From assembly GCA_001794125.1 (NCBI GenBank), contig MGJF01000002.1:37751-101750 (forward strand): a stretch of 64,000 bases of DNA, written 5' to 3'. A program made the position numbers and the translations under genes. The DNA is from Candidatus Yanofskybacteria bacterium RIFCSPHIGHO2_01_FULL_43_32 (GTDB taxonomy: Bacteria > Patescibacteriota > Minisyncoccia > 2-02-FULL-40-12 > GWA2-44-9). How positions within the stretch are numbered: position 1 is the stretch's first letter; each line of letters begins with the position of its first letter. The notes beneath the pieces were generated by a model. The model was given only the letters and a program-made list of their open reading frames with translations. It searched no databases and was not told the origin of the DNA. This document shows, in pieces, positions 1,267 to 25,247 of this stretch.

Positions 1267-2262
1267 ATGATTATAACGAGAACCCCATTTAGAATTTCAT
1301 TTTTCGGAGGTGGTACAGATTACCCTGTTTGGTATGAGAAAAACGGCGGCTCCGTCTTGTCTATGGCCATTGATAAATATAGTTATATCAATTTGCGTTC
1401 TATGCCGCCGTTTTTTAAACATAAATATAAAATCATTTATTCTAAACACGAAGAAGTTAAACATATCAATAAAATAAAACACCCTTCGGCAAGGGAAACG
1501 CTTCGCTATTTAAATATTGATGGAGGTGTGGTAATTCACCACGACGGTGATTTACCGGCCATGTCCGGCCTGGGCTCTAGTTCATCATTTACTGTCGGAC
1601 TCGTCCATGCTTTATCCGGGTTGAAAGGAGAAATAAAAACAAAACGCCAATTGGCGCTGGATGCTATTCATATAGAACAAAATTTAATCAAAGAAAATGT
1701 TGGTTCTCAAGATCAAACTATTGCCGCCTTCGGCGGTCTTAATCGTATAGATTTTGGCGGACCTCAAAAAATTCAAGTTTACCCGATAACTATAAGCAAA
1801 GAAAGAACGGAATTGTTTAAAAGTCATCTCATGCTATTTTTTACTGATTTTACCCGGCAAGCTTCTAAAATAGCTAAACATTGGATAAAAAATACCAAGA
1901 ATAACGGTAATGAACTTAAATCGATAACCAATATGGTTGACGAGGGAGTGGCTATTTTATGCAGTAATCGGAACATAATTGATTTCGGTAAATTGCTTCA
2001 CGAACATTGGTTAATAAAACGTGGGCTGGCTCAAAAAATTTCCAATCCTAAAATAGACGAAATATACAAAATCGGACGGGAAGCGGGAGCTATTGGCGGG
2101 AAGCTACTCGGCGCGGGTGGCGGAGGTTTTATGTTGTTTTTTGCGAAACCGGAGGATCATCCCAAAATAAAAGAAAAATTAAAAAAGTTTTTATATGTGC
2201 CGTTTAACATTGATATGCTTGGAAGCCAGATAATTTATCATAATCTTAATAATAGTTTTTAA
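1267..2262 (+). CDS. GHMP-family sugar kinase, D-glycero-alpha-D-manno-heptose-7-phosphate kinase (HddA/WcbL)-like
   Basis: N-terminus MIITRTPFRISFFGGGTDYPVWYEKNGGSVLSMAIDKY closely matches HddA; GHMP motif PAMSGLGSSSSFTVG; C-terminal GAGGGGF. Confidence 0.7.
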   Translation: MIITRTPFRISFFGGGTDYPVWYEKNGGSVLSMAIDKYSYINLRSMPPFFKHKYKIIYSKHEEVKHINKIKHPSARETLRYLNIDGGVVIHHDGDLPAMSGLGSSSSFTVGLVHALSGLKGEIKTKRQLALDAIHIEQNLIKENVGSQDQTIAAFGGLNRIDFGGPQKIQVYPITISKERTELFKSHLMLFFTDFTRQASKIAKHWIKNTKNNGNELKSITNMVDEGVAILCSNRNIIDFGKLLHEHWLIKRGLAQKISNPKIDEIYKIGREAGAIGGKLLGAGGGGFMLFFAKPEDHPKIKEKLKKFLYVPFNIDMLGSQIIYHNLNNSF

Positions 2263-2897: not shown

Positions 2898-2926
2898 TTG
2901 ACAACGGGTTCTTTGTTATATATATT
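2898..2926 (+). promoter_or_regulatory. sigma70-like promoter TTGACA-17nt-TATATT upstream of first split transketolase
   Basis: TTGACA 2898-2903, TATATT 2921-2926. It lies inside the ORF-track start at 2926, so the real start is likely ATG 2980. Confidence 0.45.
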
Positions 2927-2979
2927 TGCGCCAATTGAACATTAAAAACAAGGATGGGGGAGTGATAAATAACAACCAC

Positions 2980-6453: not shown

Positions 6454-6557
6454 ATTAGCTCTCCTTCAGTTATTATTTTCAATAAACTGGCCATAGAATA
6501 GAATACTTTTGGTGATTTGTCAAAAAAATGTAAAAAACTCGGCATCTGGTACTGAGC

Positions 6558-6585
6558 TTGATTTACTTCAAAATCATAGTATAAT
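6558..6585 (+). promoter_or_regulatory. sigma70-like promoter TTGATT-16nt-TATAAT (extended TAGTATAAT)
   Basis: Lies inside the ORF-track start 6509, so the real start is ATG 6620. Confidence 0.45.
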
Positions 6586-6619
6586 TTCGACACGCGATCT
6601 TTTAAAACTAGGCCACAAA

Positions 6620-8439: not shown

Positions 8440-9243
8440 ATGGAAACAAGTTTTCGTTCTTTTATTAACAAGGTAGCTAAAGTGGCAGAGAGAAAAATCA
8501 ATGTTGAAACCAAAGAAACAAACAAAGAAAAACAAAATGTTCAAAAATTAGTTACCCTTCTTCGAGAATGTCCAATCCCCAACGAGCAGGTATTGTCTAA
8601 TTTGGGTCTTTTTCTGACCTCTAAAGAATTGGCAAGAATTTTGTTTGTGGATTTTATTTACCGCCAGGCCATAGAAGTTCAGGGTATTATTGTTGAATTT
8701 GGCACTCGTTGGGGTAATAACTTGGCGATTTTTGAAGCCCTAAGAGGAATTTATGAGCCGTTCAACAAGTTAAAACAAATAATTGGCTTTGACACTTTCG
8801 AAGGATTTCCTCATGTGTCGTCAGAGGATGGAAATTCAAACCCCCTTGTCTCTGTGGGAAATTTATCATGCACCGTAAATTACCCTGATTACTTAGACCG
8901 GATAATGAAGTGCCACGAGGAAAGCAACCCGCTTAGTTATATAAAAAAATATAAAATCAGGGTTGGCGATGTCACTAAAGAAATAGACCGATATCTAAAA
9001 GATAATCCGGAAACAATTATTGCTTTGGCATTTTTTGACCTTGATTTGTATAGACCAACCAAGAAGTGTCTCGAAGCCATAAGATCACATCTTGTAAGAG
9101 GCAGTATCTTGGCTTTTGATGAATTAAATGACCACAACTGGCCAGGAGAAACCATTGCTCTTAAGGAAGTGTTCGGTCTAAATAATATTAGACTCAAGAG
9201 GCATCCGCAAGCATCCAGAGTCTCTTACTTTGCAGTAGAGTGA
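8440..9243 (+). CDS. TylF/MycF-family (macrocin O-methyltransferase-like) sugar O-methyltransferase
   Basis: GIIVEFGTRWG ... FDTFEGFP parallels TylF GDIVECGVxRGGS ... DSFEGLP. Confidence 0.55.
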   Translation: METSFRSFINKVAKVAERKINVETKETNKEKQNVQKLVTLLRECPIPNEQVLSNLGLFLTSKELARILFVDFIYRQAIEVQGIIVEFGTRWGNNLAIFEALRGIYEPFNKLKQIIGFDTFEGFPHVSSEDGNSNPLVSVGNLSCTVNYPDYLDRIMKCHEESNPLSYIKKYKIRVGDVTKEIDRYLKDNPETIIALAFFDLDLYRPTKKCLEAIRSHLVRGSILAFDELNDHNWPGETIALKEVFGLNNIRLKRHPQASRVSYFAVE

Positions 9244-9362: not shown

Positions 9363-10325
9363 ATGCAGAAAGATTTAGAGCTTGAACTTTACCAATCGAT
9401 GTACCGAATGCGTGCCGCAGAGCGGGCCATTCAGCAAGAATATCCGAACAATCAAATGAAGACCCCGATGCATATGTCCATAGGAGAAGAAGGAATCGTT
9501 GCGGGCATTTGTACTGCCCTGAAGGAAAAGGCAAAATTCTACGGAACTTACCGTAGTCATGCACTTTACCTGGCTGTCACGGAAGAAACAGATGGTTTTT
9601 TTGCCGAGTTGTACGGTAAAGTTACAGGTCCAGCCGGTGGAAAGGCAGGCTCAATGCATTTGGCATCTCCTGATCACAATCTGATAATGACATCCGCCGT
9701 TGTCGGAACAACTATTCCGGTTGCAGTCGGCGGAGCATTCAGAGAAAAATACATGAATACGGACAAGATTGCCGTTGTGTTTTTTGGCGACGGCGCCGTA
9801 GATGAAGGCGTGTTTTGGGAAAGCTTGAATCTTGCCTGCTTGTGGAAATTACCGGTGCTGTTTGTCTGCGAAGATAACGGTCTGGCAATCCACACACCCA
9901 CATCTGTGAGGCGCGGATATGATTCGTTGGGAAAAATTGCCAGGCAATATAATTGTTTGGTCTATGATTCTTTTGAGCAAACCGATGTTTTGACTATTCA
10001 TGCTATGGCAAAAAAAGCTTATGCAGAGATTCAACGTTTCAGGATGCCTGCTTTGGCGATTATTCCTTACTATCGTTATTTGGAACATGTCGGTGTTAAT
10101 GAAGATTTTGATGTGGGATATCGTTCATGTGATGAGTTCGAACAATGGCTCGCGAAAGATCCAATAGCGCTTTTACGACGAAGGCTAATTAACCAGAACC
10201 AGGAAAATGCAGTAGTTTCAATTGAAGATGCAGTCAACAAACAGATTTTTATAAGTGTCCAAAAAGCAAAAGATGCACCATTCCCAAGACCCGAAGAACT
10301 TTACAGGGGGGTATACGGTGAGTAA
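9363..10325 (+). CDS. ThDP-dependent dehydrogenase E1 component, alpha subunit (PDH/acetoin-DH E1 alpha family)
   Basis: YRSHALYLA, GDGAVDEGVFWESLNLACLWKLPVLFVCEDNGLAIHT (ThDP motif), GGGAGG RBS. Confidence 0.8.
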   Translation: MQKDLELELYQSMYRMRAAERAIQQEYPNNQMKTPMHMSIGEEGIVAGICTALKEKAKFYGTYRSHALYLAVTEETDGFFAELYGKVTGPAGGKAGSMHLASPDHNLIMTSAVVGTTIPVAVGGAFREKYMNTDKIAVVFFGDGAVDEGVFWESLNLACLWKLPVLFVCEDNGLAIHTPTSVRRGYDSLGKIARQYNCLVYDSFEQTDVLTIHAMAKKAYAEIQRFRMPALAIIPYYRYLEHVGVNEDFDVGYRSCDEFEQWLAKDPIALLRRRLINQNQENAVVSIEDAVNKQIFISVQKAKDAPFPRPEELYRGVYGE

Positions 10326-11364
10326 GCGTATCATTACTTACGCTCAAGCGATTAACGAAGCTCTCCGGCAAGAAATGGAACGTGATTCAAGTGTCTTTGT
10401 TTATGGACTGGATGTCGCAGACCACAAAGGCATCAATGGAACAACGTCGGGACTAGCGGAAAAATTTCCGGGACGCTGTTTGAGTACGCCCCTATCAGAA
10501 GAAGCTTTGATGGGATTTGGTCTTGGTGCAGCTATCAATGGTCTGCGTCCGGTTAATGTTCATATTCGTGTTGAATTCTTACTTGTGGCTTTCAACCAGT
10601 TGGTAAATATGCTCGCCTCGGCCCGTTACGGTTCCAATGGTAAACTGTCCGTTCCAATTGTCATCAGAGTGTTGATTGGTCGCGGTTGGGGACAGGGATT
10701 CCAGCATTCAAAAAGCTTGCAAAGTATTTTTGCCCATATTCCCGGACTAAAAGTTATTATGCCGGCTACGCCATATGATGCTAAAGGTATGCTCATCGCC
10801 GCTATCCGCGACGATAATCCTGTTATTTGCATGGAACATCGGTTCCTGTTTTGGCAGGAAGGCGAAGTGCCTTTTGAGCCATACACCGTTCCTTTGGGCA
10901 AGTGCTCAATTCTTCGTTCCGGGTCGGACGTTACGATAGTGGCCAGCTCCTGGTCATGCGTTGACGCACTTGACGCGGCTAAAGTATTGGAGCGGAAACA
11001 CAATATTTTGGCCGAACTGATAAATGTGCGAACTATTGCACCCTTTGATGATGCAACAGTGAATCAATCTGTACGGAAAACCGGCCACTGTATTGTCGTG
11101 GATAGTGACTGGACTCATTGTGGGTTTTCCGCCGAAGTGGCAGCTCGTGTGCAGGAAGATTGTTTCGGCTCGTTGAGATCGCCTGTTACCCGAATCGGTT
11201 TTGCGCCGACTCATTGTCCGACAACCAGGCCTATGGAAGACCTGTATTATCCGAATGCGGAAACAATTATTCGGGTTACCGAAAAGAAGCTTGGCCTGAA
11301 GCCGGCCGATTTATCCGATGAAAAGTTCCACAATTACGAGAATAAGTTTAAGGGACCGTTCTAA
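10318..11364 (+). CDS. ThDP-dependent dehydrogenase E1 component, beta subunit (transketolase-like)
   Basis: ITYAQAINEALRQEMERDSSVFVYG...GLAEKFPGRCLSTPLSEEALMGFGLGAA; GTG start overlapping the alpha-subunit stop. Confidence 0.75.
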   Translation: MSKRIITYAQAINEALRQEMERDSSVFVYGLDVADHKGINGTTSGLAEKFPGRCLSTPLSEEALMGFGLGAAINGLRPVNVHIRVEFLLVAFNQLVNMLASARYGSNGKLSVPIVIRVLIGRGWGQGFQHSKSLQSIFAHIPGLKVIMPATPYDAKGMLIAAIRDDNPVICMEHRFLFWQEGEVPFEPYTVPLGKCSILRSGSDVTIVASSWSCVDALDAAKVLERKHNILAELINVRTIAPFDDATVNQSVRKTGHCIVVDSDWTHCGFSAEVAARVQEDCFGSLRSPVTRIGFAPTHCPTTRPMEDLYYPNAETIIRVTEKKLGLKPADLSDEKFHNYENKFKGPF

Positions 11365-13616: not shown

Positions 13617-13706
13617 TTTCCAATATCGACGCAATCAGCTGATGGACAAATCTAAACTTTTATGTTATCAAATTGAGAACACCGCACCTTGTCAATAAGG
13701 AACAAA

Positions 13707-14696
13707 ATGAAAGCCATAAAAGTTTTGATTACAGGAATTTCTGGTTCCGGAGCAAGTTATTTAGCTGAATATATTGTTAATAACCATCCAGAAGTAGAAC
13801 TTCACGGCACTTTTCGCTCAAATAGCTCTCGCTCTCAAAAAAATATTCAAGAAATTGCAAACAAACTGTTTCTTCACGACTGCGACTTAGATGATTATAC
13901 CGTCACGCACCAATTGATTGCCGGACTTAAACCGGACATTGTTTTCCACATCGCTTCTTATGCCAACGTAAGAGAGTCCTGGGACAAGCCGGTCTTTACT
14001 CTGCAGAACAATATAATCAGCACAGCCAATCTGTTGGAAGCAATCCGATCGGCCGCCGGTATACACCCCCGGATCCAAATGTGCAGCACACCGGAAGTAT
14101 ACGGCCAAGTAGATCCCAAGAACATTCCAATCGATGAAAGCTGTCCCATTAACCCAAACAATCCCTATGCCGTATCCAAATTTGCACAGGAATCGTTGGG
14201 GTACTCTTATTTCAAGGGTTTTGGCTTGCCCGTGATTATTACTCGCATGTCTACCTATCTCAATCCGAGGCGGGCGGATCTTTTTGCCACAGCATTCGCA
14301 ATGCAAGTGGCGCGGATTGAAGCTGGTTTACAGAAAGAATTACGGCACGGCAACCTTGATTCTACCAGAACGATTCTTGATCCCAGGGACTGCGCCAGTG
14401 CTTATTGGGCCGCCATAGAAAAAGGCGAGTCCGGAGAGGTCTATAATATCGGCGGAAATACAGTGGTAACGGTTGGGGAATTTTTGGAAGTACTTAAAAT
14501 AAAAGCCCGACGAACGATTCCCTCTATAGCCGACAAGAGTTTATTTAGACCCGCAGACATCACTCTACAAATCATAAATTCCGGAAAATTTTCCAAGCAA
14601 ACCGGCTGGCAGCCAAAATATAGTTTTGAGGAAAGCGTCGAATACTTACTGGGGCATTGCCGCCGAACAGTTCAAGAGGAGTTGGCAAGCCGGTGA
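13707..14696 (+). CDS. gmd: GDP-mannose 4,6-dehydratase family
   Basis: LITGISGSGASYLAEYI / HGTFRSNSS / YAVSKFAQESLGYSY...RMSTYLNPRR track Gmd LITGVTGQDGSYLAEFL / HGIKRRASS / YAVAKLYAYW...NHESPRR; start at ATG 13707 with AAGGAA RBS. Confidence 0.75.
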   Translation: MKAIKVLITGISGSGASYLAEYIVNNHPEVELHGTFRSNSSRSQKNIQEIANKLFLHDCDLDDYTVTHQLIAGLKPDIVFHIASYANVRESWDKPVFTLQNNIISTANLLEAIRSAAGIHPRIQMCSTPEVYGQVDPKNIPIDESCPINPNNPYAVSKFAQESLGYSYFKGFGLPVIITRMSTYLNPRRADLFATAFAMQVARIEAGLQKELRHGNLDSTRTILDPRDCASAYWAAIEKGESGEVYNIGGNTVVTVGEFLEVLKIKARRTIPSIADKSLFRPADITLQIINSGKFSKQTGWQPKYSFEESVEYLLGHCRRTVQEELASR

Positions 14697-15652
14697 AAAA
14701 GAAAAAGGTTTTGATCTGCGGGGCAAGCGGGTTTATCGGAAGAAATATTTTTGAAGCACTAGTAAAAAATAGCGAGATAGAAGTTGTCGGCACATATAAT
14801 TCTCATCCATTTTACAGCCCCACTTCGAGTTTGAGGAAGGTTGACCTGACCAGTAAGAAAGATGTCAATAAATTGCTTGATGAAAATTTTGATGTAGTAA
14901 TCCAAGCCGCAGCGACCACATCAGGATCCAAAACGATAAAAGAGCATCCGGAAATTCACATAACCGATAATGCAATAATGAACTCTCTTGTTTTCCGCTC
15001 TGCTCATCATCATAAAATTTCTCATGTAATTTTCTTCAGCTGTTCAATTGTGTATTCCGGCGGCGACAAGCCGGCTAAAGAAACAGACGTTAATCTTAAT
15101 GACGGTATGCACTCTGCATATTTCGGAGCCGGTTGGACAAAAATCTATTTGGAAAAAATGTGCGAATTTTACTCACGTCTTGGTCGGACCAAATTTCTTG
15201 TAATACGGCACTCGAACATGTATGGTCCGTATGATAAGTATGACCCTGAGAGGTCTCACATGTTCGGCGCCAATATTACTAAGGTTATGACAGCAAAAGA
15301 TGGCGATGAAATTATGCTCTGGGGAACGGGCCAGGAAAAAAGAGATCTGCTGTGTATGTCTGATCTGGTGGATTTTATAGAGATTGTCTTGGCAAAGCCA
15401 GACAAGAAGGACTTTGATTTAGTCAATGTCGGTTGCGGTGAAGCTGTAAGTGTCAACGATATAATTTCAAAGACAATCCTTGCCTCGGGTAAGGACCTCT
15501 CTGTGGCACACAATGTAACCGGACCAACTATCCCGGTTAGCATTACACTTGATACGACAAAAGCAAAAAATGTGTATGGCTGGCAGCCACAAATTGGTTT
15601 AGACGAAGGCATTAAAAGAACAATTGAGTGGTATCGCAATAATTTTCCATAA
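14693..15652 (+). CDS. GDP-L-fucose synthase / GDP-colitose synthase-like (Fcl/ColC family) epimerase-reductase
   Basis: VLICGASGFIGRNIF; C-terminal VNVGCGEAVSVNDI...TLDTTKAKNVYGWQPQIGLDEGI resembles the Fcl C-terminus; GTG start overlapping the gmd stop (GTGA). Confidence 0.6.
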   Translation: MKKKKVLICGASGFIGRNIFEALVKNSEIEVVGTYNSHPFYSPTSSLRKVDLTSKKDVNKLLDENFDVVIQAAATTSGSKTIKEHPEIHITDNAIMNSLVFRSAHHHKISHVIFFSCSIVYSGGDKPAKETDVNLNDGMHSAYFGAGWTKIYLEKMCEFYSRLGRTKFLVIRHSNMYGPYDKYDPERSHMFGANITKVMTAKDGDEIMLWGTGQEKRDLLCMSDLVDFIEIVLAKPDKKDFDLVNVGCGEAVSVNDIISKTILASGKDLSVAHNVTGPTIPVSITLDTTKAKNVYGWQPQIGLDEGIKRTIEWYRNNFP

Positions 15653-15744: not shown

Positions 15745-16695
15745 ATGAAATATAAACCGCTTGGAACAAGCGGAATTATGGTATCAGAGATTGGATTTGG
15801 CGGCTGGGGAATAGGCGGGGTAACTCCGGGGCCGACCTCTTATGGTCCGACTGACGATAACGAATCACAGAGAGCCTTGGAGTCGGCATTTGATAGAGGA
15901 ATAACTTACTACGACACCGCCGGTGTTTATGGCAAAAGTGAAGAACTAATAGGAAAGACCTTTAAACATCGCCGAGGCAAAGTGGTTATCGGAACCAAAG
16001 TGGGGTTTCTGGAGCATCATACTCCGCAAGATTTTTCGAGAAAAAATATTATTGCCACACTTCAAAAAAGCCTAAAGAACATGGAAACGGATTACATTGA
16101 TCTCTACCAGCTCCACAATCCTGATCTTAAAAACCTGCCCATGGATGAGATTGTGGGTACCTTGATAAAATTACGAACTCAAGGACTAATCAGGGCCTTA
16201 GGTGTTTCGGTTAAACATCCTGATCATGGTCTGACAGCGCTATGGTATGGAGAATTTACTTCTATACAAGTTAATCTGAATATGATTGACCAAAGAGCGG
16301 TTGATAACGGCCTCATAAAACAAGCCGGGGAACAAAGCGTGGGAATTATAGCACGCACGCCTCTAAACTTTGGCTTCCTTACTGACAACGGCAAGACAAT
16401 GAACTTAGACTTCGGTCTGCAGGATCATAGGTCGGTTTGGTCAATGGAACAAAGAGTGGCCTGGCAAAAAGCCGCTCATTTGTTATCTGAAGTTTGCCCG
16501 GAAGAATCATTAGCCACATTGGCCATGCGTTATTGTTTAAGCGTTGATGGTGTAAGTACCGTTATCCCGGGCATGCTGACCGTGGATGACGTTTTGGCTA
16601 ATTCTGTCGCAGTAGAATTACCATTGAATCAAAAAACAATGTTTGAAATAAGGCACATATATCACGAGAATGATCAGTTCTTTGTCCGACAATAA
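15745..16695 (+). CDS. aldo/keto reductase
   Basis: LGTSGIMVSEIGFGGWGIGG, YYDTAGVYG, IDLYQLHNPD AKR signatures. Confidence 0.8.
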   Translation: MKYKPLGTSGIMVSEIGFGGWGIGGVTPGPTSYGPTDDNESQRALESAFDRGITYYDTAGVYGKSEELIGKTFKHRRGKVVIGTKVGFLEHHTPQDFSRKNIIATLQKSLKNMETDYIDLYQLHNPDLKNLPMDEIVGTLIKLRTQGLIRALGVSVKHPDHGLTALWYGEFTSIQVNLNMIDQRAVDNGLIKQAGEQSVGIIARTPLNFGFLTDNGKTMNLDFGLQDHRSVWSMEQRVAWQKAAHLLSEVCPEESLATLAMRYCLSVDGVSTVIPGMLTVDDVLANSVAVELPLNQKTMFEIRHIYHENDQFFVRQ

Positions 16696-16697
16696 AA

Positions 16698-16721
16698 TCG
16701 CCCTAAATAGGGCGACTTTTT
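16698..16721 (+). terminator. rho-independent terminator
   Basis: tcgccct-aaat-agggcga followed by cttttta. Confidence 0.6.
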
Positions 16722-16800
16722 ATTTAGTATTATTGAATTGCCAAAAGGTAAGTTTTTATGTATAACTATTGTCATGAACCTTAATAATTAGGGAGTAGCT

Positions 16801-18954
16801 ATGAGTTCAAGAGTAATTCCCCTCAAGGTTGTAACCGAGAGTCCTCCATTGGCCACAATTATTCCAAAACCGAAAAATAAGATAAAAATAGGCCCCATTC
16901 AGCTTAATAATAGCTTTTCTGGTCAGAATTATCTCCCCCAATCTATAGGAATGATTCAAGCCTATGCCAAAAAACATCTGACCCATGCCGAGGACTATAA
17001 TTTTCTTTTGCCACTTTTTACTTTTATGCCGATTAATGAGGCGGTAGAAAAATTAAGTGGTGCTGATCTTTTGGTTTTAAGCTTATATGTTTGGAATTTT
17101 GAAAATTCTATGGCTATAGCTGAAGAGTTTAAAAGACGCTACCCGGAACGATTAGTCGTTGTCGGCGGGCCTCATGTGCCTGATGGAAAAAAACAGTTTC
17201 AAAGAATTAAAAAATCTGATCCCGGATCAGATGAATTAAAGACGAAAAGAGTGGGCATAACTGAAAAATTTCATCGCGAACATCCTTGCATAGATATTGC
17301 GGTTCATGGGGAAGGCGAAAGGGTGTTTAAAATGATTCTTGAACGAATGGCCATCGATGGCCTGACCGATAAAAGCCAGATACCATCAATTAGTTATATT
17401 GATAACAAGGGATTGTTTCATCACAATTCCAAACTTGAACGGATGCGTGATTTATCTGAAGTTCCCTCACCATACCTTACGGGCGTGTTCGATCCTCTTG
17501 TGGCGGCATATCCCGATCAGAAATGGATTGCGATGTGGGAAACCGACAGAGGCTGCCCTTATCAATGTACTTATTGCGATTGGGGCGGAGCTACTGAAGA
17601 TAAGGTGAGCCCGTTCAAACTTGATTGTATCAGGCAAGAGGCTTGGTGGTTTGGAAAGCACAAGATTCCGTATATTTTTCTTGCGAATGCAAATTATGGA
17701 ATTTTAAAACAGGATGTAGAAATTGCAAAAAGCTTGGCCGAGGTTAAAAGGATAACCGGTTTTCCGGAAGGAATATCCGTTCAAAATGCCAAAAACCCGA
17801 AACCTCATACTTTGGAAGCTTTGGAAATTCTTGAACAGGCCGGTCTCAACAAAGCCACGGTAATGTCGATTCAATCTAAGAATAGGGAAACTCTTGAGGC
17901 GGTCAGGCGTGAGAATATGAAACCTGAAGAATATCAGGCAAACCAGAAACGCTTACGCGCTAAAGGTGTCTTCACGATGACTGACTATATTATTCCGATG
18001 CCGATGGAAACTTACGACAGCGTATTACAGGGAATATCCGACATTATTTCGGATGGTCAGCATGACCGGATTCAATTTAACAATCTTTCTATTTTGCCAA
18101 ATGCAGAAATGGCCGATCCGGAATATCAGGAAAAATACGGTATGGAAATGGTCAGGACGCCGATAACTAATATTCATGGTAAGAAAAGTGCATCTGTTAG
18201 CGGTGTTGAGGAATATCAAGATCTGGTGATTGCAACAAGCACAATGTCGAGAGAAGAATGGGTTAAGACACGAACATTGTGTTATGCGGTAGCTCTTGTT
18301 TATTTCAATAAACTTCTTCAGATTCCGATTATGATTTTGCACGAAATCTACGGAGTGTCTTATAAAGATATATTTGAAGCGTTTATGGAAGACCCGAAAA
18401 AATCCGTAAAATTTCCTGTTTTTGCCGAGATTCTTAATTTTTTTGAGACGTTCTCGCACGGAGTTCAAAATGGAACACAAGAAGAATTCTATCACTCTCA
18501 GGAGTGTTTAGACGTTTTGTGGCCGCCTGACGAATATGTATTTATTAAACTGTGCCGGGAAAATAAATTGGAAAGATTTTATGAAGAAGCTGAAATGATA
18601 ATGATGAATTTTGTAACCGGACCGGATATTTCGCCCGAACCTTTCAGGGAAGCAGTAGGACTCAATAGGTCACTGATAAAGTTACCGTTTCAGACAACAG
18701 ATTTGGAAATAACTTTAAATTACAATATTCTGGATATATATCAGTCCGCCCGATTGGAAGAGAAACTAGAACTTCAATCAGGAAATTACCGGCATGTTAT
18801 AGACAGAACTACTAAGTCAGATTCCGCTAATACTAATGCTAGGTGGGATTCATGGGAAGAATGGTATGAAAAAATGGTTTGGTGGTGCAACCGCCGAGGC
18901 GCATACCTCTATGGAAGCAAGAACCCGCACACAGAAATCGCCGGTCATCATTAA
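16801..18954 (+). CDS. cobalamin (B12)-binding-domain radical SAM enzyme (class B), 717 aa
   Basis: N-terminal B12-binding-like Rossmann segment, radical-SAM CPYQCTYCDWG (CxxxCxxC), long C-terminal extension. Confidence 0.7.
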   Translation: MSSRVIPLKVVTESPPLATIIPKPKNKIKIGPIQLNNSFSGQNYLPQSIGMIQAYAKKHLTHAEDYNFLLPLFTFMPINEAVEKLSGADLLVLSLYVWNFENSMAIAEEFKRRYPERLVVVGGPHVPDGKKQFQRIKKSDPGSDELKTKRVGITEKFHREHPCIDIAVHGEGERVFKMILERMAIDGLTDKSQIPSISYIDNKGLFHHNSKLERMRDLSEVPSPYLTGVFDPLVAAYPDQKWIAMWETDRGCPYQCTYCDWGGATEDKVSPFKLDCIRQEAWWFGKHKIPYIFLANANYGILKQDVEIAKSLAEVKRITGFPEGISVQNAKNPKPHTLEALEILEQAGLNKATVMSIQSKNRETLEAVRRENMKPEEYQANQKRLRAKGVFTMTDYIIPMPMETYDSVLQGISDIISDGQHDRIQFNNLSILPNAEMADPEYQEKYGMEMVRTPITNIHGKKSASVSGVEEYQDLVIATSTMSREEWVKTRTLCYAVALVYFNKLLQIPIMILHEIYGVSYKDIFEAFMEDPKKSVKFPVFAEILNFFETFSHGVQNGTQEEFYHSQECLDVLWPPDEYVFIKLCRENKLERFYEEAEMIMMNFVTGPDISPEPFREAVGLNRSLIKLPFQTTDLEITLNYNILDIYQSARLEEKLELQSGNYRHVIDRTTKSDSANTNARWDSWEEWYEKMVWWCNRRGAYLYGSKNPHTEIAGHH

Positions 18955-18960
18955 AAATAT

Positions 18961-18986
18961 AAATCCCGCAATAGCGGGATTTTTGA
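18961..18986. terminator. bidirectional rho-independent terminator between convergent radical-SAM genes
   Basis: aaatcccgc-aata-gcgggattt flanked by A-run upstream and T-run downstream. Confidence 0.65.
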
Positions 18987-18993
18987 TTTGGTT

Positions 18994-20292
18994 TCAGTAG
19001 ACCATTCCATGGTCTCTGAGATACTGCTGAACTTGTTTAATATTGTTGGCAATTTCTTCGCGGGTGAGCGACGGACCCCAAGGAGTCATTTTTTCATATT
19101 CAAACGGAAGGCCGACTTCCTCGTCATCGCCGAAACGATACATCAAGTGCGCATGTTTGGAGAGGTCCGGTTCAATACTCTTTATGCCTAAAGATTTGGC
19201 GTTTTTCTGAAAGACCGAACCGGGCACTACGTCCAGACCCGAAACCGCCATGAAATCCGGCTTGACCTCTTCAATAAACCTGATTGTTTTCTCCACTACC
19301 CGGTTGGTTTCGCCGGGAAGACCGAAGATAATGCAGACCTTAACTTTAATGCCGTGCTTTTTTAACAATTCAATGAACCTGCGGTTAGCATCAATGCTTG
19401 TAGAGGGCTTGTTGGACAGCTGAAGCACTTTGTCGGTTTCAACACTTTCAACACCGATAGCGAGTTCCAAACACCCGCTCTGTCGGGCAAGTCTGATGAT
19501 TTCTTCTGATCCCATGGGAATCGTCTGCCCTCTCCAGACAATATTTTCAGCAGCGATGGCTTCAAACATAGCAACAGCTTCTTTCCGGTTAACCGGGATA
19601 CACACCTCGTCGCGCAGATTAATTCCCTGCACACCGTAGCGCTGCTTAAGGTATCTGATCTCTGCCGTGATCTGAACGGGCCGCTTAAGCTCAAATCTGT
19701 TCGGATTGTTATATACACAGAAACTGCAGTGGAAAACACAACCGCGCGAGAAGTAAACACTCGTTCCGGGAATCGAACCGTATTGAGCGAAATGCTTGTC
19801 GTGAACAATCTTGAAATCGGGAAGGAAGTCTCGTTGAGGAAAGGGATAAGATGCGAAATGAAATATTTGGTTGCTTTTGTAGGTTCGTTGTAGATTGTGG
19901 GCACGATAGTCTGTCAATGCTTGCAACAATAATTCTTCTCCGCTACCGATAATTGATGCGTCAAAAATATTGAGACATTCATCTGTGAGCCGGTCAACAT
20001 GATTGCCGCCGGCGATATGGGCACTATTGGGATATCTTTGTTTTGTATTTTTGACAAGACCATATATTTCGGGCGCATCGGCACTTTTGTTGATCCAGTA
20101 AAGGTACAGATCTCTTTCCGGCAAATCAACTTCTTCACTTTTTGGCCAATCGCGTAGGTCTATAATATCTACATTTACACCCGGATCACGCTCACGCAAA
20201 AAAGTTGCATAATAAAGTTCCCAGAGAGGCTGTAGTTTCACAGGATCTTTCCAGTAATGCCATGATGGAACAATAACAGCGATATTCAACAT
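18994..20292 (-). CDS. cobalamin-binding-domain radical SAM enzyme (class B), 432 aa
   Basis: YFSRGCVFHCSFCVYN (CxxxCxxC) after an N-terminal B12-like domain. Confidence 0.65.
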   Translation of the reverse strand: MLNIAVIVPSWHYWKDPVKLQPLWELYYATFLRERDPGVNVDIIDLRDWPKSEEVDLPERDLYLYWINKSADAPEIYGLVKNTKQRYPNSAHIAGGNHVDRLTDECLNIFDASIIGSGEELLLQALTDYRAHNLQRTYKSNQIFHFASYPFPQRDFLPDFKIVHDKHFAQYGSIPGTSVYFSRGCVFHCSFCVYNNPNRFELKRPVQITAEIRYLKQRYGVQGINLRDEVCIPVNRKEAVAMFEAIAAENIVWRGQTIPMGSEEIIRLARQSGCLELAIGVESVETDKVLQLSNKPSTSIDANRRFIELLKKHGIKVKVCIIFGLPGETNRVVEKTIRFIEEVKPDFMAVSGLDVVPGSVFQKNAKSLGIKSIEPDLSKHAHLMYRFGDDEEVGLPFEYEKMTPWGPSLTREEIANNIKQVQQYLRDHGMVY

Positions 20293-21594: not shown

Positions 21595-24312
21595 ATGGTA
21601 AATAATCCTAAAATAATTGTCACTGTCGGACCGGCTACCCACAGTTTAAATCATCTTGAAAAAATGAAGGACTTGGGTGTGGATTTTATCCGCGTCAACA
21701 TGTCTCACTCAACAACAGACTACCTTAAAGATTTTATCAGGCTTTCTAAAAAGGCCGACTTGCCGTTTATAATCGATACTCAAGGTTCACAGGTCAGGAC
21801 TGGTGATTTATCAAGACCCTCAATACAGCTGAAAGAAAATCAATACATAAAAATTTACACTAAGACATCATTGGACTTAAAGGACAATGGCCTATGCCTT
21901 AAACCGTCGGGCATAACAGAAAAACTTGAACCGGGGGATTTGATATACATTGATTTTAATAGTTTGGTTTTAAGGGTTAGCGATGTTTCAACATCTTCAA
22001 GAGGATATATTACTGCTCAAGCCATCAGTGATGGATGCGCCGGCAACAACAAGGCTGTTGTCATCGAATCAGTTTTTAGGAATAAAATAAATTTGCCGGT
22101 TTTAAGTCCGGTTGATTTTGAGGCGATTAAAATTGGTCTGAGAGAAAAAATCGGATATATAGCCGTCTCGTTTGTTCGTCGTGTTGAGGACATTGATTTT
22201 GTCAGAAAAGCCACAAAAAATTCAATGAAAATAATTTCAAAGATTGAATGTGTTGACGCCTTGAAAAACCTGGATGCTATAGTTAAGAAAACTGACCTTA
22301 TCCTTATTGACCGCGGAGACTTAAGCAAGGAAATACCCCTTACAGCCATACCAATGGCTCAAAAAATGATAATGAACACAGCCAAGAAATATAAAAAAGA
22401 CGTATTTGTAGCAACAAATCTTCTGGAGACAATGATTAGCAGTAAAAAGCCAACCCGGGCAGAAGTAAATGATATAGCGAATACTATTTTAGATGGAGCT
22501 GCAGGACTTGCGTTGGCAGCGGAGACTGCAATCGGCAAATATCCTTTGGAATCCATAGCTACACTTAAAAAGGTAATAAGCCACACAATATCTCCTGCGG
22601 TAAATTTGCATGACGGTAACTCATTGATTACCAGACCTCATGGCGGGAAATTGGTTAATTTAATACCCGATTCTATGCCAAGTTCAAAATACCTTGCATC
22701 ACTGAAGAAAGTTAAACTTGATCCAGAACATCAGATGGACGTTGAACTTATGGGTGTCGGTGTTTATAGTCCGCTTGAAGGATTTATGATCAAAAAGGAT
22801 TTGGATAGTGTTGCCGACAAAATGCGCCTTGCTAACGGCACTATCTGGCCGCTGCCTATTGTTCTTGATGTAAGCAAAGAAGAGTCCTGTAAGTTTAAAA
22901 TCGGGGATGCCATTGCCCTTATGGACAGTGAAAATTCGGTTATGGCGATATTGCACTTAGCCCAAAAATACCCTTTTAATAAAAAGAGGATTATAAAAAA
23001 AATATTTGGTACTGACAGTATAAAACACCCTGGCGTTAAGATGATGAATAACATGAAAGACATTTTTATTGGAGGCAAGATAGAGTTTATCAAAAAAAGA
23101 AATTCCGAGACAAAAGGGTATGAATTAACTCCCGCTCAGGTAAGAAAGCTCATTGAAGAAAAGGGGTGGCTAAAGGTAATAGGGTTTCACACCCGGAATG
23201 TTATTCACCGCAGCCACGAGTTTATACAACTCGAAGCATTAAGAAAGGAATTTGGTGACGGGCTTTTTGTTCATCCGATTATAGGCAAGAAAAAACCGGG
23301 GGACTTTAATGCAAAATATATTATTAGGTCATACGAAACAATGATGAAAAATTTTTATCCAAAGGATTCCGTTATCTTTTCGGTTTTCTCAAGCTATTCC
23401 CGTTATGCCGGTCCAAGAGAGGCTTTGTTTACGGCTATTTGCCGGAAGAACTACGGGTGCAGTCATTTTATTGTCGGCCGGGATCATACCGGGGTTGGTG
23501 ATTTTTATAAACCGACTGCGTCTCATGATATTTTTGATAAGTTTCCGGATCTTGGAATAAAACCAGTTAAATTCCACCAAGTCTTTTACTCCAAGAAATT
23601 AGACCAGCATATGCATGAAAAAAATGTTTCCCGTCATGATGAAAAAGATAAACTTCATATCAGTGGAACCCAAGCCCGCAAAATGTTTTTGAACGGAAAA
23701 ATACCGCCGAGTTGGTTTATGAGGCCGGAAATTTCAAAACCAATTCTGACTGCCATCAAAAGAGGTGAAAAAGTTTTTGTGAAAAACGCTGTGGTTGTTT
23801 GGTTTACTGGACTAAGCGGTTCTGGAAAAACAACAATTGCTACCGCACTCTCAGGGAAACTTTCTAAGATGGGTAAAAAGGTCCTTATGTTGGATGGTGA
23901 CGAAATAAGAAAGACCATCAGCAAAGATTTGGGTTTTTCAAGAGACGATATCAGGGAAAACAATAAACGCATTGCTGAGTTGGCAAAATCAAAGATGGGA
24001 GACTACGACTTTATTCTAGTTCCCGTTATTTCACCCCTTAAAGAAGATCGGCTAACTGCCAGAAAATTAATAGGGGACAATTTTGTGGAGCTTTTTGTTA
24101 ATGCTTCTTTGGAAAAATGCAAAGAACGGGACGTTAAGGGTCTTTATGGAAAATATGCTGCCGGTTTGGTCGTTAATCTTATAGGAGCCAGTTCATCTAG
24201 TTCATATGAATGCCCTGAAAATCCTGACATAGAGATAAATACTGAAGATTCAATTGTTAACAAAAACATCAATCAGGTAATCAAAACTTTGAATAAGAAA
24301 AAAATAATATGA
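21595..24312 (+). CDS. tri-domain fusion: pyruvate-kinase-like domain + sulfate adenylyltransferase (ATP sulfurylase) + adenylylsulfate (APS) kinase
   Basis: aa 1-330 PK-like (IVTVGPATHS...RVNMSHS...IIDTQGSQVRTG; SKIECVDALKNLDAIVKKTDLILIDRGDLSKEIP; KKPTRAEVNDIANTILDGAAGLALAAETAIGKYPLESI); middle GFHTRNVIHRSHEFIQ (ATP-sulfurylase QTRNxxHRAH); C-terminal VVWFTGLSGSGKTT P-loop (CysC-like). Confidence 0.8.
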   Translation: MVNNPKIIVTVGPATHSLNHLEKMKDLGVDFIRVNMSHSTTDYLKDFIRLSKKADLPFIIDTQGSQVRTGDLSRPSIQLKENQYIKIYTKTSLDLKDNGLCLKPSGITEKLEPGDLIYIDFNSLVLRVSDVSTSSRGYITAQAISDGCAGNNKAVVIESVFRNKINLPVLSPVDFEAIKIGLREKIGYIAVSFVRRVEDIDFVRKATKNSMKIISKIECVDALKNLDAIVKKTDLILIDRGDLSKEIPLTAIPMAQKMIMNTAKKYKKDVFVATNLLETMISSKKPTRAEVNDIANTILDGAAGLALAAETAIGKYPLESIATLKKVISHTISPAVNLHDGNSLITRPHGGKLVNLIPDSMPSSKYLASLKKVKLDPEHQMDVELMGVGVYSPLEGFMIKKDLDSVADKMRLANGTIWPLPIVLDVSKEESCKFKIGDAIALMDSENSVMAILHLAQKYPFNKKRIIKKIFGTDSIKHPGVKMMNNMKDIFIGGKIEFIKKRNSETKGYELTPAQVRKLIEEKGWLKVIGFHTRNVIHRSHEFIQLEALRKEFGDGLFVHPIIGKKKPGDFNAKYIIRSYETMMKNFYPKDSVIFSVFSSYSRYAGPREALFTAICRKNYGCSHFIVGRDHTGVGDFYKPTASHDIFDKFPDLGIKPVKFHQVFYSKKLDQHMHEKNVSRHDEKDKLHISGTQARKMFLNGKIPPSWFMRPEISKPILTAIKRGEKVFVKNAVVVWFTGLSGSGKTTIATALSGKLSKMGKKVLMLDGDEIRKTISKDLGFSRDDIRENNKRIAELAKSKMGDYDFILVPVISPLKEDRLTARKLIGDNFVELFVNASLEKCKERDVKGLYGKYAAGLVVNLIGASSSSSYECPENPDIEINTEDSIVNKNINQVIKTLNKKKII

Positions 24313-25247
24313 AAATAAGGCTTGGCAAAAGACAACCCTTGACGAAAAAACTCCTTTTAGTTGAGGGCATAGCAAGAGCTGGTAAATTTTTATTGGCTAA
24401 TGTTTTGAGCGGGTTTGAGCACATTGAGCCGGTTCAACTGTATGGTTTATTAGAACAAATACCCGTGTGGGCTAATTTGGGATTAATTGATAGAAATACC
24501 GCAAAAGAGATTTTGAGGTTAGAAATTGATACACATTGTTATGAAATGCTTACTGGACGAAATTTTAACTACAGAGTGTCGGACAAATCATCAATTTTTA
24601 ATATTCCACGTTATCAAAAATACCTTGCCCGCTCTAAAGAGAAAGACATAGACAAGATAATGAAAGAATATGATCAGGAAAAACCGTTCAGTTTTTTCAT
24701 TATGCACGAACTGATGCCGTACATCGGAATATATTTTGAAACCTTTCCAGAGTTGAAGGTTATAAGCATCAGGAGAAATCCTGTTGACTTGGTTTTTTCA
24801 TGGTACAAACGCGGTATCGGTCAAAGATATGGCAAGGATCCTAAATTTTTCAAAATTCCTATTCAGGGCAAATATGGCTCCGCTCCCTGGTTTTTACCCG
24901 AATGGAATAAGCTTTCGGAAATAGATAGGATAATACTTTCCATCAAAAAACTCTTCGACATGTATGAGGTGTCGTACCGGTGCTTGCCTCACAAGTATAA
25001 AAAAAGAATTATGTTTGTTTCATGTGAAGATGTTTTGAGTAATCCTGTGAGCGTTATTGATAGATTGGGAAATTTTTTGGGCAAAAAAGCTCTTCCAGAA
25101 ATGAAGTCTATTTTAAAAAGAGAAAAACTGCCTGTAATTAAAAAGCTTGAATTAAGGAGCCAAAATCTAGAGGAAATTAAAAAATTGGCTTCAAAAAAGT
25201 ATTTAAATGTTTTAATTAAACTAAAAAGGGAATATGAAAAATCTTAA
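24309..25247 (+). CDS. putative PAPS-dependent carbohydrate sulfotransferase
   Basis: GIARAGKF 5'-PSB-like loop and ISIRRNPVDLVFSWY resembling the 3'-PB RxxRxPxDxxxS motif; ATGA overlap with the PAPS-synthase fusion. Confidence 0.5.
   Translation: MKIRLGKRQPLTKKLLLVEGIARAGKFLLANVLSGFEHIEPVQLYGLLEQIPVWANLGLIDRNTAKEILRLEIDTHCYEMLTGRNFNYRVSDKSSIFNIPRYQKYLARSKEKDIDKIMKEYDQEKPFSFFIMHELMPYIGIYFETFPELKVISIRRNPVDLVFSWYKRGIGQRYGKDPKFFKIPIQGKYGSAPWFLPEWNKLSEIDRIILSIKKLFDMYEVSYRCLPHKYKKRIMFVSCEDVLSNPVSVIDRLGNFLGKKALPEMKSILKREKLPVIKKLELRSQNLEEIKKLASKKYLNVLIKLKREYEKS

Follow-up and report, generated by a model that had tools for sequence, protein, structure and literature searches.

ORF-A encodes a 717-residue, three-domain radical-SAM enzyme of the TokK/CysS type with predicted cobalamin dependence (16801..18954, + strand). 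With a probability of roughly 60%, it is a cobalamin-dependent class B radical-SAM C-methyltransferase of nucleotide-sugar biosynthesis. It lies tail to tail with a second, more compact radical-SAM gene, ORF-B (18994..20292, - strand), inside a cell-surface glycan locus of a groundwater bacterium. Related enzymes are found in similar sugar-gene surroundings across many phyla.

The locus

The window, the whole 64,000-nucleotide stretch of DNA that was analyzed, belongs to a contig of Candidatus Yanofskybacteria (Patescibacteria). A Wzx-type glycan locus fills about 42 kb of it. This locus encodes Wzx, glycosyltransferases, an initiating sugar transferase, NeuB/NeuC, DegT aminotransferases and SDR dehydratases, together with PAPS synthesis and a sulfotransferase. 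A sequence-only reading had described two convergent ORFs with the motifs CPYQCTYC and CVFHCSFC embedded in a glycan locus; coordinates and motifs proved exactly as claimed, and the glycan setting is borne out by the sugar-gene content of the window.

Several genes upstream of ORF-A are relevant to the two ORFs, all on the + strand. These include an HddA/fucokinase-like GHMP sugar kinase (1267..2262), which belongs to the cassette found alongside the ORF-A clade, and a 267-residue protein with weak TylF/Methyltransf_24-like matches (8440..9243). A pyruvate-dehydrogenase-E1-like alpha/beta thiamine-diphosphate enzyme pair (9363..11364) also co-occurs with the ORF-A clade and is a candidate installer of a two-carbon branch. 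It is followed by a GDP-mannose-4,6-dehydratase-like and GDP-fucose-synthase-like SDR pair (13689..15652) and by a 316-residue aldo-keto reductase, AKR (15745..16695; Pfam Aldo_ket_red, 194 bits). No B12 uptake or salvage genes were seen in the annotated parts of the window, and Patescibacteria are not known as cobalamin producers.

The spacer between ORF-A and ORF-B is only 39 nt long and holds an intrinsic-terminator-like hairpin (18961..18982, both strands) of 9 bp with 5 GC pairs, behind which each strand has T-rich tracts. Its folding energies are -14.1 and -14.7 kcal/mol, with z scores of -3.5 and -5.0 relative to shuffled sequences, in agreement with the bidirectional terminator that had been proposed for the two genes. 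Between the AKR gene and ORF-A there is a second terminator-like hairpin (16698..16715, + strand; z = -4.8). The bracketing of ORF-A by these two hairpins suggests a separate transcription unit.

Domain structure of ORF-A

The AF2 model of ORF-A (pLDDT 86, pTM 0.87) shows three domains. The N-terminal domain, residues ~27-210 (16879..17430, + strand), has a Rossmann-type fold of five strands plus a β-hairpin and is predicted to bind cobalamin. It aligns with TokK residues 21-108 (HMMER, 61 bits), and the strand order, taken from DSSP of the model, agrees. Residue W98, in the loop after strand 3, corresponds to TokK W76, which lies under the cobalt (bioRxiv 10.1101/2021.07.10.451909; PMC13331322). 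The domain also contains a GGPH motif at residues 122-125 and a 25-residue insert at ~130-156 that is specific to the CPR subclade and gapped in 82% of the relatives from other phyla. The B12-binding domain that had been read at the N-termini of both ORFs was recovered by the Pfam model PF02310 with significant E-values (25.4 bits, E = 1e-5 for ORF-A; 23.8 bits, E = 4e-5 for ORF-B), but both scores fall under the gathering score of 32.1. Many homologues of both ORFs carry a precomputed PF02310 match.

The radical-SAM domain forms a (β/α)6 core at residues ~240-478 (17518..18234, + strand), as delimited by Pfam (250-409), the TokK alignment (156-528) and the secondary structure of the model. 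Its score against PF04055 is 40.1 bits, above the gathering threshold of 29.5. The [4Fe-4S] motif C252-x3-C256-x2-C259 (CPYQCTYC; 17554..17577, + strand) is followed by D260-W261, and W261 corresponds to TokK W215. The three cysteines and both tryptophans, W98 and W261, are invariant in 30 of 30 close homologues and kept in at least 97% of 79 distant ones.

The remaining residues, ~480-717 (18238..18951, + strand), form a mostly helical C-terminal domain of the TokK type, which is predicted to form a substrate channel. The pLDDT here is mostly above 85, and the domain superposes on those of TokK and CysS in full-length comparison; its role in TokK has been described (bioRxiv 10.1101/2021.07.10.451909). 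Among 79 sequences from more than 10 phyla, 20 positions of this domain are at least 97% conserved, including W487, K504, Q507, E562, W574, E578, N622, W688, W694, Y702 and Y704. Thus the "~350-residue C-terminal extension of unknown function" of the sequence-only reading turns out to be ~240 residues past the radical-SAM core that make up a known domain. Nor is the protein unusually long, as had been thought: TokK has 681 residues and CysS 645, and the ORF-A model superposes end to end.

Family and distribution of ORF-A

The best matches in the PDB are TokK (E = 5e-83, 283 bits) and CysS (E = 7e-48), covering the cobalamin and radical-SAM domains. Foldseek places TokK first, with TMq 0.80 and TMt 0.87 across 713 aligned columns, and CysS second (TMq 0.63-0.69). 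Among NCBIfam models by far the best match is the KedN5 family, NF033712, at 231.7 bits; this is under the curated cut-off of 700, and function is therefore not transferable by rule. Other NCBIfam models, including BchE, HpnJ, PhpK, HpnR and RiPP methylases, score at most 45.6 bits. Membership of the BchE, HpnJ, HpnR and PhpK families, whose curated equivalog cut-offs are 481-650 bits, was rejected for both proteins (ORF-A at most 42 bits, ORF-B at most 91 bits, with sugar genes throughout the context). From the homology to TokK, the modeled fold and the counterparts of W76 and W215, class B chemistry with C-methylation is the best-supported reading of ORF-A.

ORF-A belongs to a distinct, uncharacterized clade of TokK relatives. 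The clade is present in at least 573 species-level genomes from more than 10 phyla and on hundreds of IMG/VR contigs as well. More than 1,500 homologues of ORF-A and 280 of ORF-B were found, and a protein 100% identical to ORF-A is encoded on 23 contigs; these are therefore real genes. Between Yanofskybacteria loci ORF-A is only 50-52% identical, as against 76-85% for the AKR and ORF-B genes beside it.

Gene neighborhoods were counted, using our own crude ORF calling, within 10 kb of the 79 best-scoring of the at least 573 loci. These 79 homologues come from CPR, Elusimicrobia, Omnitrophota, Acidobacteria, Proteobacteria, Planctomycetes, Nitrospirae, Leptospiraceae and cyanobacteria. An SDR epimerase/dehydratase is near 63 of the 79, E1-beta/TktC near 38-42 and E1-alpha near 31-36. 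GHMP kinase (39-42 of 79, median identity 53%), DegT (26-32) and NTP-transferase (19) follow, and RmlC-like proteins also recur. AKR, present near 37-46 of the 79 with a median identity of 46%, is the most consistent immediate neighbor; it adjoins the ORF-A homologue in 31 loci, downstream in 27 and upstream in 4. Homologues at 47-54% identity elsewhere lie among SDR, NUDIX, E1, AKR and NeuB genes, and a 33%-identical relative is likewise in a sugar cluster. The clade does not track sialic-acid-type genes. The sugar cassette is variable; since no partner is common to all ORF-A loci, the substrate may not be exactly the same in every subclade. An ORF-B-like gene occurs within 10 kb in just 9-14 of the 79 loci, and ORF-A and ORF-B are therefore not a conserved functional pair.

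ORF-B

ORF-B is a 432-residue protein consisting of a Rossmann and a radical-SAM domain in a compact class B architecture. Its Pfam Radical_SAM score is 67.0 bits, above the gathering threshold of 29.5, and the core fold is present in the model. The cluster motif C185-x3-C189-x2-C192 (CVFHCSFC; 19717..19740, - strand) is invariant in 30 homologues, and the N-terminal domain keeps a GGxH motif. The closest solved structure is AprD4, with the cobalamin-dependent MgmA, CysS and TsrM almost as close. The assignment of both ORFs to class B fared differently for each: the full-length TokK match supports it for ORF-A, while ORF-B, whose Rossmann domain is present, may be either a cobalamin-dependent or a cobalamin-free enzyme.

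Orthologues of ORF-B with 48-60% identity occur in Alphaproteobacteria, in Marinimicrobia and on another contig, within similar sugar cassettes. Immediately before each of them lies an SDR of 319-330 residues. The 267-residue protein of the window is co-conserved with ORF-B orthologues in other phyla: it has a counterpart, at 53-57% identity, in the orthologue loci L005, L088 and L089, and in L088 and L089 this counterpart lies directly downstream of the ORF-B orthologue.

Proposed mechanism

From the genes, fold, homology, motifs and neighborhood seen here, we infer cobalamin binding, methyl transfer, the identity of the substrate and the order of the steps. Several points count against this reading: the low scores with the PF02310 and KedN5 models, the pantetheinylated small molecules (as opposed to sugar nucleotides) that TokK and CysS are known to use, the Patescibacteria not being known as cobalamin producers, the variability of the cassette, and the lower identity of ORF-A than of its flanking genes between Yanofskybacteria loci. 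By homology to TokK, the [4Fe-4S] cluster bound by the CX3CX2C motif would reductively cleave one SAM to generate a 5'-deoxyadenosyl radical. This would remove a hydrogen from the substrate at an unactivated sp3 carbon. The resulting substrate radical would gain a methyl group from methylcobalamin, which the N-terminal Rossmann domain would bind base-off/His-off, its cobalt lying above W98, and a second SAM would re-methylate cob(I)alamin. Residues ~480-717 and both other domains would together form the substrate channel. One or several methyl groups may be added, because every characterized close relative is iterative.

The substrate would be a nucleotide-activated deoxysugar, probably acyl-branched; methylation would fall either on a sugar of the 4-keto-6-deoxy type or on the acyl branch that the thiamine enzyme installs. 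It could be made by the conserved cassette of GHMP kinase, 4,6-dehydratase-like SDR and E1 alpha/beta pair, with a nucleotidyltransferase in other loci. The adjacent AKR would finish by reducing a keto group. The carboxylate-binding R280 of TokK is replaced by S326 in ORF-A (Ser in 26 of 30 homologues), which points to a substrate different from that of TokK; Y652, another substrate-binding residue of TokK, falls beyond the part aligned by HMMER. ORF-B is probably a separate enzyme, which stems from another module and came to lie tail to tail with ORF-A. Its substrate would likewise be a sugar intermediate, and it would be either a second methylase that depends on B12 or a dehydratase that, like AprD4, works without cobalamin.

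A more far-reaching and rather doubtful version is that the ORF-A clade represents widespread, previously unrecognized iterative B12-dependent radical methylases of nucleotide sugars that, in the manner of TokK and CysS, build ethyl-/isopropyl-type or longer alkyl groups. The placement of such alkyls on acyl-branched or O-methylated deoxysugars is equally tentative.

Alternative explanations

ORF-A might methylate a target other than a nucleotide sugar, such as a lipid-linked or polymerized glycan, an acyl or keto-acid donor prior to attachment, or a carrier-bound intermediate. TokK and CysS do use pantetheinylated substrates that enter via a long channel (bioRxiv 10.1101/2021.07.10.451909), and keto-acid donors elaborated beforehand can serve to build acyl-branched sugars (PMC9306805). 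This is nonetheless unlikely: no carrier-protein, PPTase, CoA-ligase or pantetheine-related gene recurs beside the ORF-A clade loci, and the recurrent partners (SDR dehydratases, GHMP kinase, NTP-transferase, RmlC-like proteins) are typical of nucleotide-sugar pathways. Still less probable is that ORF-A uses B12/radical-SAM chemistry for a reaction that is not a methylation, such as a rearrangement like that of OxsB or the joining of carbons on a sugar by a new C-C bond. Some class B enzymes, OxsB and BchE among them, are not methylases, OxsB is a distant structural match to ORF-A (TMq 0.46), and R280 is not kept. Against this, the characterized members of the nearest clade are all methylases (TokK, CysS and ThnK, with KedN5 by family name), the two tryptophans that mark the clade are invariant in the relatives of ORF-A, and the similarity to TokK far exceeds that to any non-methylase. 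Chance residence of both genes in the locus, with a true role in a porphyrin, hopanoid or RiPP pathway, can be given very little credence. Terminator-like hairpins or divergent promoters bracket both genes, and there are weak NCBIfam matches to BchE, HpnJ, HpnR and RiPP methylases; however, these are 5-10 times under the curated cut-offs. The surroundings of ORF-A and ORF-B showed no genes for porphyrins, hopanoids or precursor peptides. Both genes keep sugar-gene neighbors across phyla, which excludes the porphyrin/hopanoid alternative.

For ORF-B, independence of cobalamin has slightly less than an even chance. The protein would then deoxygenate a sugar, either as a radical-SAM 1,2-diol dehydratase resembling AprD4 or as some other radical enzyme that lacks the cofactor, and the SDR would reduce the ketone, by analogy with AprD3, which carries out this reduction for AprD4. 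AprD4 itself has a Rossmann-like domain but no bound cobalamin (PMC12931638). On the other side, AprD4 (apramycin pathway; PDB 6FD2) is only 18-19% identical to ORF-B, sequence alignment fails for the N-terminal domains, and the AprD4-family model NF033070 gives 58.7 bits over the core region only, with a cut-off of 500.

Significance

To our knowledge, the characterized TokK/CysS-type enzymes all come from actinomycete and myxobacterial antibiotic pathways. A large part of this enzyme type, which seems not to have been studied, sits in sugar-nucleotide cassettes within cell-surface or flagellar glycan loci of many phyla. If the proposed chemistry is true, bacterial glycans would carry radical-methylated carbons not foreseen by standard composition analyses or glycan databases, cobalamin supply would gate the surface structure of organisms such as Patescibacteria, and the ORF-A clade would be a tractable source of new C-methylation biocatalysts. 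If the iterative reading is also true, cell-surface, flagellar and possibly phage-encoded sugars would be hyper-alkylated in ways chemically undescribed so far, and ORF-A paralogue swaps (50% versus ~80% identity) would be a means of surface-antigen diversification, even in B12-auxotrophic CPR. There are cultivable carriers, among them Terasakiella sp. A23 for the ORF-B module, so the question is directly testable.

Comparison with known systems

TokK and ThnK, the sequential methylases of carbapenem C6 (PDB 7KDX, 7KDY), have the same three-domain layout and CX3CX2C-DW motif as ORF-A. The overall identity to TokK is about 25% in structural alignment. ORF-A differs from TokK in the 25-residue insert of the cobalamin domain and in its glycan/nucleotide-sugar context, as opposed to the β-lactam cluster of TokK. 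CysS, the iterative methylase of cystobactamid (PDB 9N1B-D), shares the clade and fold of ORF-A; it lengthens the O-methyl group on a pantetheinylated aromatic intermediate, and no such pathway genes are present at the ORF-A locus.

The earlier label GenK/Fom3-type is imprecise, the nearest characterized relatives of ORF-A being TokK, CysS and the KedN5 family. GenK, GenD1 and Fom3 resemble ORF-A in predicted overall chemistry but are not its nearest relatives, as judged by NCBIfam class B models only. GenK and GenD1 have carbohydrate substrates, which are free pseudo-oligosaccharides in antibiotic pathways and not part of cell-surface glycan loci.

Another comparison is with the acyl-branched sugars. 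YerE-type enzymes are single-chain, whereas the ORF-A cassette has split E1-/transketolase-type enzymes. The cluster genes listed for yersiniose, erwiniose and caryophyllose include no radical-SAM enzyme, unlike the ORF-A locus (PMC9306805). The established route to these sugars consists of a thiamine enzyme and an NAD(P)H oxidoreductase, and YerE/YerF and ErwE/ErwF, which act in this way on an NDP-4-keto-deoxysugar, follow a logic like that of the E1/transketolase plus AKR/SDR cassette of ORF-A (PMC9306805).

A TokK-type radical SAM protein

ORF-A (16801..18954, + strand) encodes a 717-aa protein carrying the radical SAM motif C252-PYQ-C256-TY-C259. Of the NCBIfam models, the KedN5 family (methylcobalamin-dependent C-methyltransferases) leads clearly with 231.7 bits, under its cut-off of 700; no other class B family exceeds 46 bits. 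Among solved structures it matches TokK (681 aa, E = 5e-83) in two segments, the Cbl domain at 43-130 and the core at 156-528, and CysS (645 aa) with E = 7e-48. An AlphaFold2 model using 30 homologues as input (pLDDT 86, pTM 0.87) superimposes on TokK over 713 columns with a TMq of 0.80 and a TMt of 0.87; CysS ranks second, and OxsB and TsrM are far lower. The position of ORF-A relative to GenK, Fom3, ThnK and KedN5 was judged by NCBIfam and PDB score ranking, as a stand-in for a formal phylogeny.

The sequence-only reading had described ORF-A as unusually long, with a C-terminal extension of unknown function. Neither description holds. Since the model superimposes on TokK over nearly its entire length, its size is not unusual, and structural superposition places residues ~480-717, which follow the core, in a TokK-type C-terminal domain. 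In TokK this domain contributes to the substrate tunnel (bioRxiv 10.1101/2021.07.10.451909). In ORF-A it is under strong constraint, with a mean per-position identity to ORF-A of 41%, versus 51% for the core, and 20 near-invariant positions. The extra length is explained by two CPR-specific additions, an unstructured N-terminus of ~26 aa and a 25-aa insert at residues ~130-156 (window 17188-17268), in place of which 82% of the relatives in other phyla have a gap. The insert is Lys/Arg-rich, lies in the cobalamin-binding domain and is absent from TokK. Despite its low pLDDT, positions K131, F133, R150 and T154 are conserved within the CPR subclade.

The residues that matter for the cofactor can be compared directly. 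TokK W76 is located beneath the cobalt, in the loop that follows the third Rossmann strand (bioRxiv 10.1101/2021.07.10.451909; PMC13331322). It aligns with ORF-A W98, and TokK W215 aligns with ORF-A W261. Neither these two tryptophans nor the three cysteines vary among 30 close homologues, and all five are conserved in at least 97% of a set of 79 sequences that spans more than 10 phyla. Unlike TokK, ORF-A has S326 in place of the carboxylate ligand R280, consistent with a substrate other than TokK's. From its sequence, ORF-A would be TokK-type in its working yet a member of no curated equivalog; it falls below the curated KedN5-family threshold and is without the TokK substrate ligand.

Five proteins of ~1,000-1,090 aa (P0249, P0251, P0253, P0254 and P0260) match ORF-A residues ~237-708 with their C-terminal ~450 residues. 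They consist of the core and C-terminal domain fused to a large, uncharacterized N-terminal part.

Distribution and gene neighborhoods of the ORF-A clade

Database records from MAGs of Candidatus Yanofskybacteria, part of the Patescibacteria/Parcubacteria group, include a protein with 100% identity to ORF-A, and the window was matched to contig MGKK01000012.1 of GCA_001794695.1. When 1.84 billion cluster representatives were scanned in full with phmmer, 1,424 clusters came up at E <= 1e-30, and among GTDB species representatives a pattern scan confirmed a relative in at least 573 genomes. The 79 best loci encode essentially full-length homologues, 41-76% identical to ORF-A. They come from Patescibacteria, Elusimicrobia, Omnitrophota, Acidobacteria, Beta- and Alphaproteobacteria, Planctomycetes, Nitrospirae, Leptospiraceae, cyanobacteria, Verrucomicrobia and others, although MAG taxon labels can be wrong, as one locus is labeled Bordetella parapertussis.

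Neighbors within 10 kb were counted in these 79 top-scoring of the at least 573 loci, using tblastn with the window proteins and de novo BLAST clustering of crude calls from a simple ORF caller. An SDR epimerase/dehydratase is present in 63 of the 79 loci, E1-beta/transketolase-C in 42, a GHMP kinase in 39-42 (median identity 53%), an aldo-keto reductase (AKR) in 37-46 (median 46%), E1-alpha in 31-36 and DegT in 26-32. Less frequent are an NTP-transferase (19), a short SDR (18), NUDIX and RmlC-like proteins (15 each) and a PhyH dioxygenase (11). The AKR lies directly downstream of the ORF-A homologue in 27 loci and directly upstream in 4. The same picture is seen around 47-54% homologues looked up independently, and around a 33% relative. 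The nonulosonic-acid genes of the window locus (NeuB, NeuC and the CMP-transferase) were rejected as conserved partners, since NeuB occurs in only 6/79 loci and the CMP-transferase in 2/79; homologues of the window's PAPS and sulfotransferase genes occur in 1/79. Given these counts, together with ORF-B-like genes in 9-14 of 79, the conserved partner of ORF-A is a kinase/nucleotidyltransferase/4,6-dehydratase/thiamine-enzyme/reductase cassette, not sialic-acid-type genes and not ORF-B. Gene context and the NCBIfam scores also ruled out a porphyrin, hopanoid or RiPP assignment.

At many of the sugar loci (L010, L011, L014, L015, L040, L045, L058 and L069) further radical enzymes recur in strings. 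They include a ~619-aa B12-binding radical SAM protein (PF02310, 56.9 bits), a HemN-like radical SAM protein and a PhyH-family dioxygenase, and form a wider radical/oxidative toolkit for sugar tailoring. Relatives with 26-42% identity are also present on at least 491 IMG/VR viral contigs, a collection that can include cellular DNA; sugar-nucleotide genes lie within 8 kb in 40 of the 80 best such loci (L093-L172). The sugar cluster of P0296 (L091), a 33% relative of ORF-A, adjoins the phage-like replication genes DNA_pol_B_exo2 and AAA_24.

The convergent gene pair

ORF-B (18994..20292, - strand; 432 aa, C185-VFH-C189-SF-C192) converges on ORF-A. Both genes lie where the sequence-only reading had placed them, and the 39-nt spacer holds, in keeping with the bidirectional terminator it had assigned to both, a 9-bp hairpin (18961..18982) with T-rich tracts on both strands. 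Its folding energy is ~-14 kcal/mol, with z = -3.5 and -5.0 versus shuffles. A second terminator-like hairpin (16698..16715) separates ORF-A from the upstream AKR gene (15745..16695, +). Because it has hairpins on both sides, ORF-A may be its own transcription unit. ORF-B and the glycosyltransferase gene at 20429 are divergently transcribed.

The common terminator raised the possibility of a functional pair, which was rejected on the low count of ORF-B-like genes with ORF-A homologues. Moreover, true ORF-B orthologues have no ORF-A relative within 10 kb at three loci (L005, L088 and L090). The convergent layout was found again only in two other Yanofskybacteria loci, L016 and L017, which have the same AKR, ORF-A, ORF-B order as window 15745-20292. 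Measured against the window proteins, identity there is 76-77% for the AKR and 80-85% for ORF-B, but only 50-52% for the ORF-A between them. Several loci contain two ORF-A paralogues. In these comparisons ORF-A therefore behaves as an exchangeable specificity component.

The glycan locus of the window

Annotation of the window genes bears out the premise that the pair is embedded in a glycan locus, a single large one spanning ~300-42,900. Apart from the thiamine-enzyme and sulfation genes described below, the gene order begins with a weak methyltransferase-like protein, followed by an HddA/fucokinase-like GHMP kinase, an SDR, a 267-aa protein with weak TylF/Methyltransf_24 similarity (8440-9243, +), a DegT aminotransferase, three SDR epimerase/dehydratases including a GMD-like and Fcl-like pair, the AKR, ORF-A and ORF-B, and a TIGR04440 glycosyltransferase. 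It continues with a CMP-sugar synthetase-like gene, GFO oxidoreductases, NeuB, NeuC, a formyltransferase, a second DegT, a PseB-like dehydratase, GT11 and GT2 transferases, a Wzx-type flippase, a Bac_transf initiating transferase and a UDP-glucose dehydrogenase fragment. A gene for a pyruvoyl-dependent arginine decarboxylase (39925-40467, -) has glycosyltransferase genes on one side and the gene of the initiating transferase on the other.

The locus has three split thiamine-diphosphate enzyme pairs (2926-4703, 6509-8387 and 9363-11364), two of them transketolase N/C pairs and one PDH-E1 alpha/beta-like. Their number suggests several two-carbon transfers, i.e. a higher-carbon or multiply branched sugar. 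A 905-aa fusion (21595-24312, +) combines a pyruvate-kinase barrel (residues 4-321), a PUA-like domain, ATP sulfurylase and APS kinase. The sulfotransferase gene (24309-25247) follows directly, with overlapping stop and start codons. This arrangement implies that PAPS is made locally for a sulfated glycan; the unusual-looking pyruvate-kinase part perhaps regenerates ATP.

Cofactor use by ORF-B

The sequence-only reading had made both proteins class B enzymes with a B12-binding-like domain. The radical SAM part stands for both, with an above-threshold Pfam match in ORF-A and 67 bits in ORF-B, but the Pfam B12-binding match is below threshold in ORF-A (25.4 vs 32.1 bits) and in ORF-B (23.8 bits). 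The NCBIfam matches of ORF-B are weak, all far under cut-offs, with 90.6 bits for BchE, 82.6 for PhpK, 79.2 for HpnJ and 58.7 for AprD4. Architecture alone does not prove class B membership for ORF-B, because AprD4 has a Rossmann-like domain yet does not bind cobalamin (PMC12931638). ORF-B is seen as a sugar-pathway radical SAM enzyme that is either a B12-dependent methylase, with a probability of about 0.45, or a cobalamin-free dehydratase-type enzyme, a serious though somewhat less favored candidate; the remainder falls to neither.

Cobalamin use is favored by the N-terminal domain, which has no sequence alignment to AprD4 but shows weak similarity to B12-type domains, both to 4Q37 (E = 4e-4 when searched with the family profile) and to the Cbl domain of TokK. 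It has an invariant GGxH motif, and the loops that follow strands 1 and 3 contain invariant aromatic or charged residues. At the level of loops, alignments of ORF-A to ORF-B cannot be relied on. An AprD4-like enzyme is favored by AprD4 heading the matches in every method. It is also favored by an SDR of 319-330 aa directly before the orthologue in four distant loci, which recalls the AprD4/AprD3 pair.

Close ORF-B homologues (77-89%) are found in Yanofskybacteria. After a gap the next, at ~60%, are alphaproteobacterial (Rhodospirillales, Terasakiella sp. A23, Rhodospirillum sp.), and further orthologues occur in Marinimicrobia and Opitutales. An orthologue of the 267-aa TylF-like gene (53-57% identity) lies near the ORF-B orthologue in three of the four loci with the preceding SDR, L005, L088 and L089 (Alphaproteobacteria, Marinimicrobia), and directly downstream in the latter two. 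The two genes therefore look like a co-conserved module, though they are 10 kb apart in the window. Transketolase or E1 pairs are likewise found at these three loci, as is a longer AKR. The sugar cassettes of L005 (LT599022.1) and L088 (Terasakiella sp. A23, JAWLVJ010000005.1) abut flagellar genes, flgD/flgE in one and flaF with a TPR-Glyco_transf_41 (TPR-GT41) protein in the other, which suggests flagellin glycosylation. Terasakiella sp. A23 appears to be in cultivation and might therefore serve for experiments.

Predicted reaction of ORF-A and comparison with known systems

The best-supported mechanism for ORF-A is that given for TokK by its authors (bioRxiv 10.1101/2021.07.10.451909); cofactor binding, substrate and product are all predicted. 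The [4Fe-4S] cluster would cleave SAM, and the 5'-deoxyadenosyl radical would remove a hydrogen at an unactivated carbon. Methylcobalamin, held base-off with Trp beneath the cobalt, would then give up a methyl radical, and a second SAM would re-methylate the cobalamin. The likely substrate is a sugar of the 4-keto-6-deoxy type in NDP-activated form, or the branch that a thiamine enzyme would install on it; a keto group would then be reduced by the neighboring AKR. Since TokK and CysS are both iterative (bioRxiv 10.1101/2021.07.10.451909), ORF-A may add more than one methyl.

The established route to acyl-branched sugars, among them yersiniose, erwiniose and caryophyllose, has a thiamine enzyme and an NAD(P)H oxidoreductase act on an NDP-4-keto-deoxysugar (PMC9306805). 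The thiamine enzymes of those pathways are single-chain, of a type unlike the split pairs of the window. Searches of the available literature found nothing relevant on B12 radical SAM enzymes in nonulosonic acid, O-antigen, flagellin glycosylation or Patescibacteria, or in nucleotide-sugar or branched-sugar pathways, and database labels of ORF-A- and ORF-B-type proteins are generic. Among class B methylases, GenK and GenD1 of the aminoglycosides already provide examples that act on carbohydrates. What the analysis adds to these known systems is a large, conserved, uncharacterized and sugar-associated ORF-A clade.
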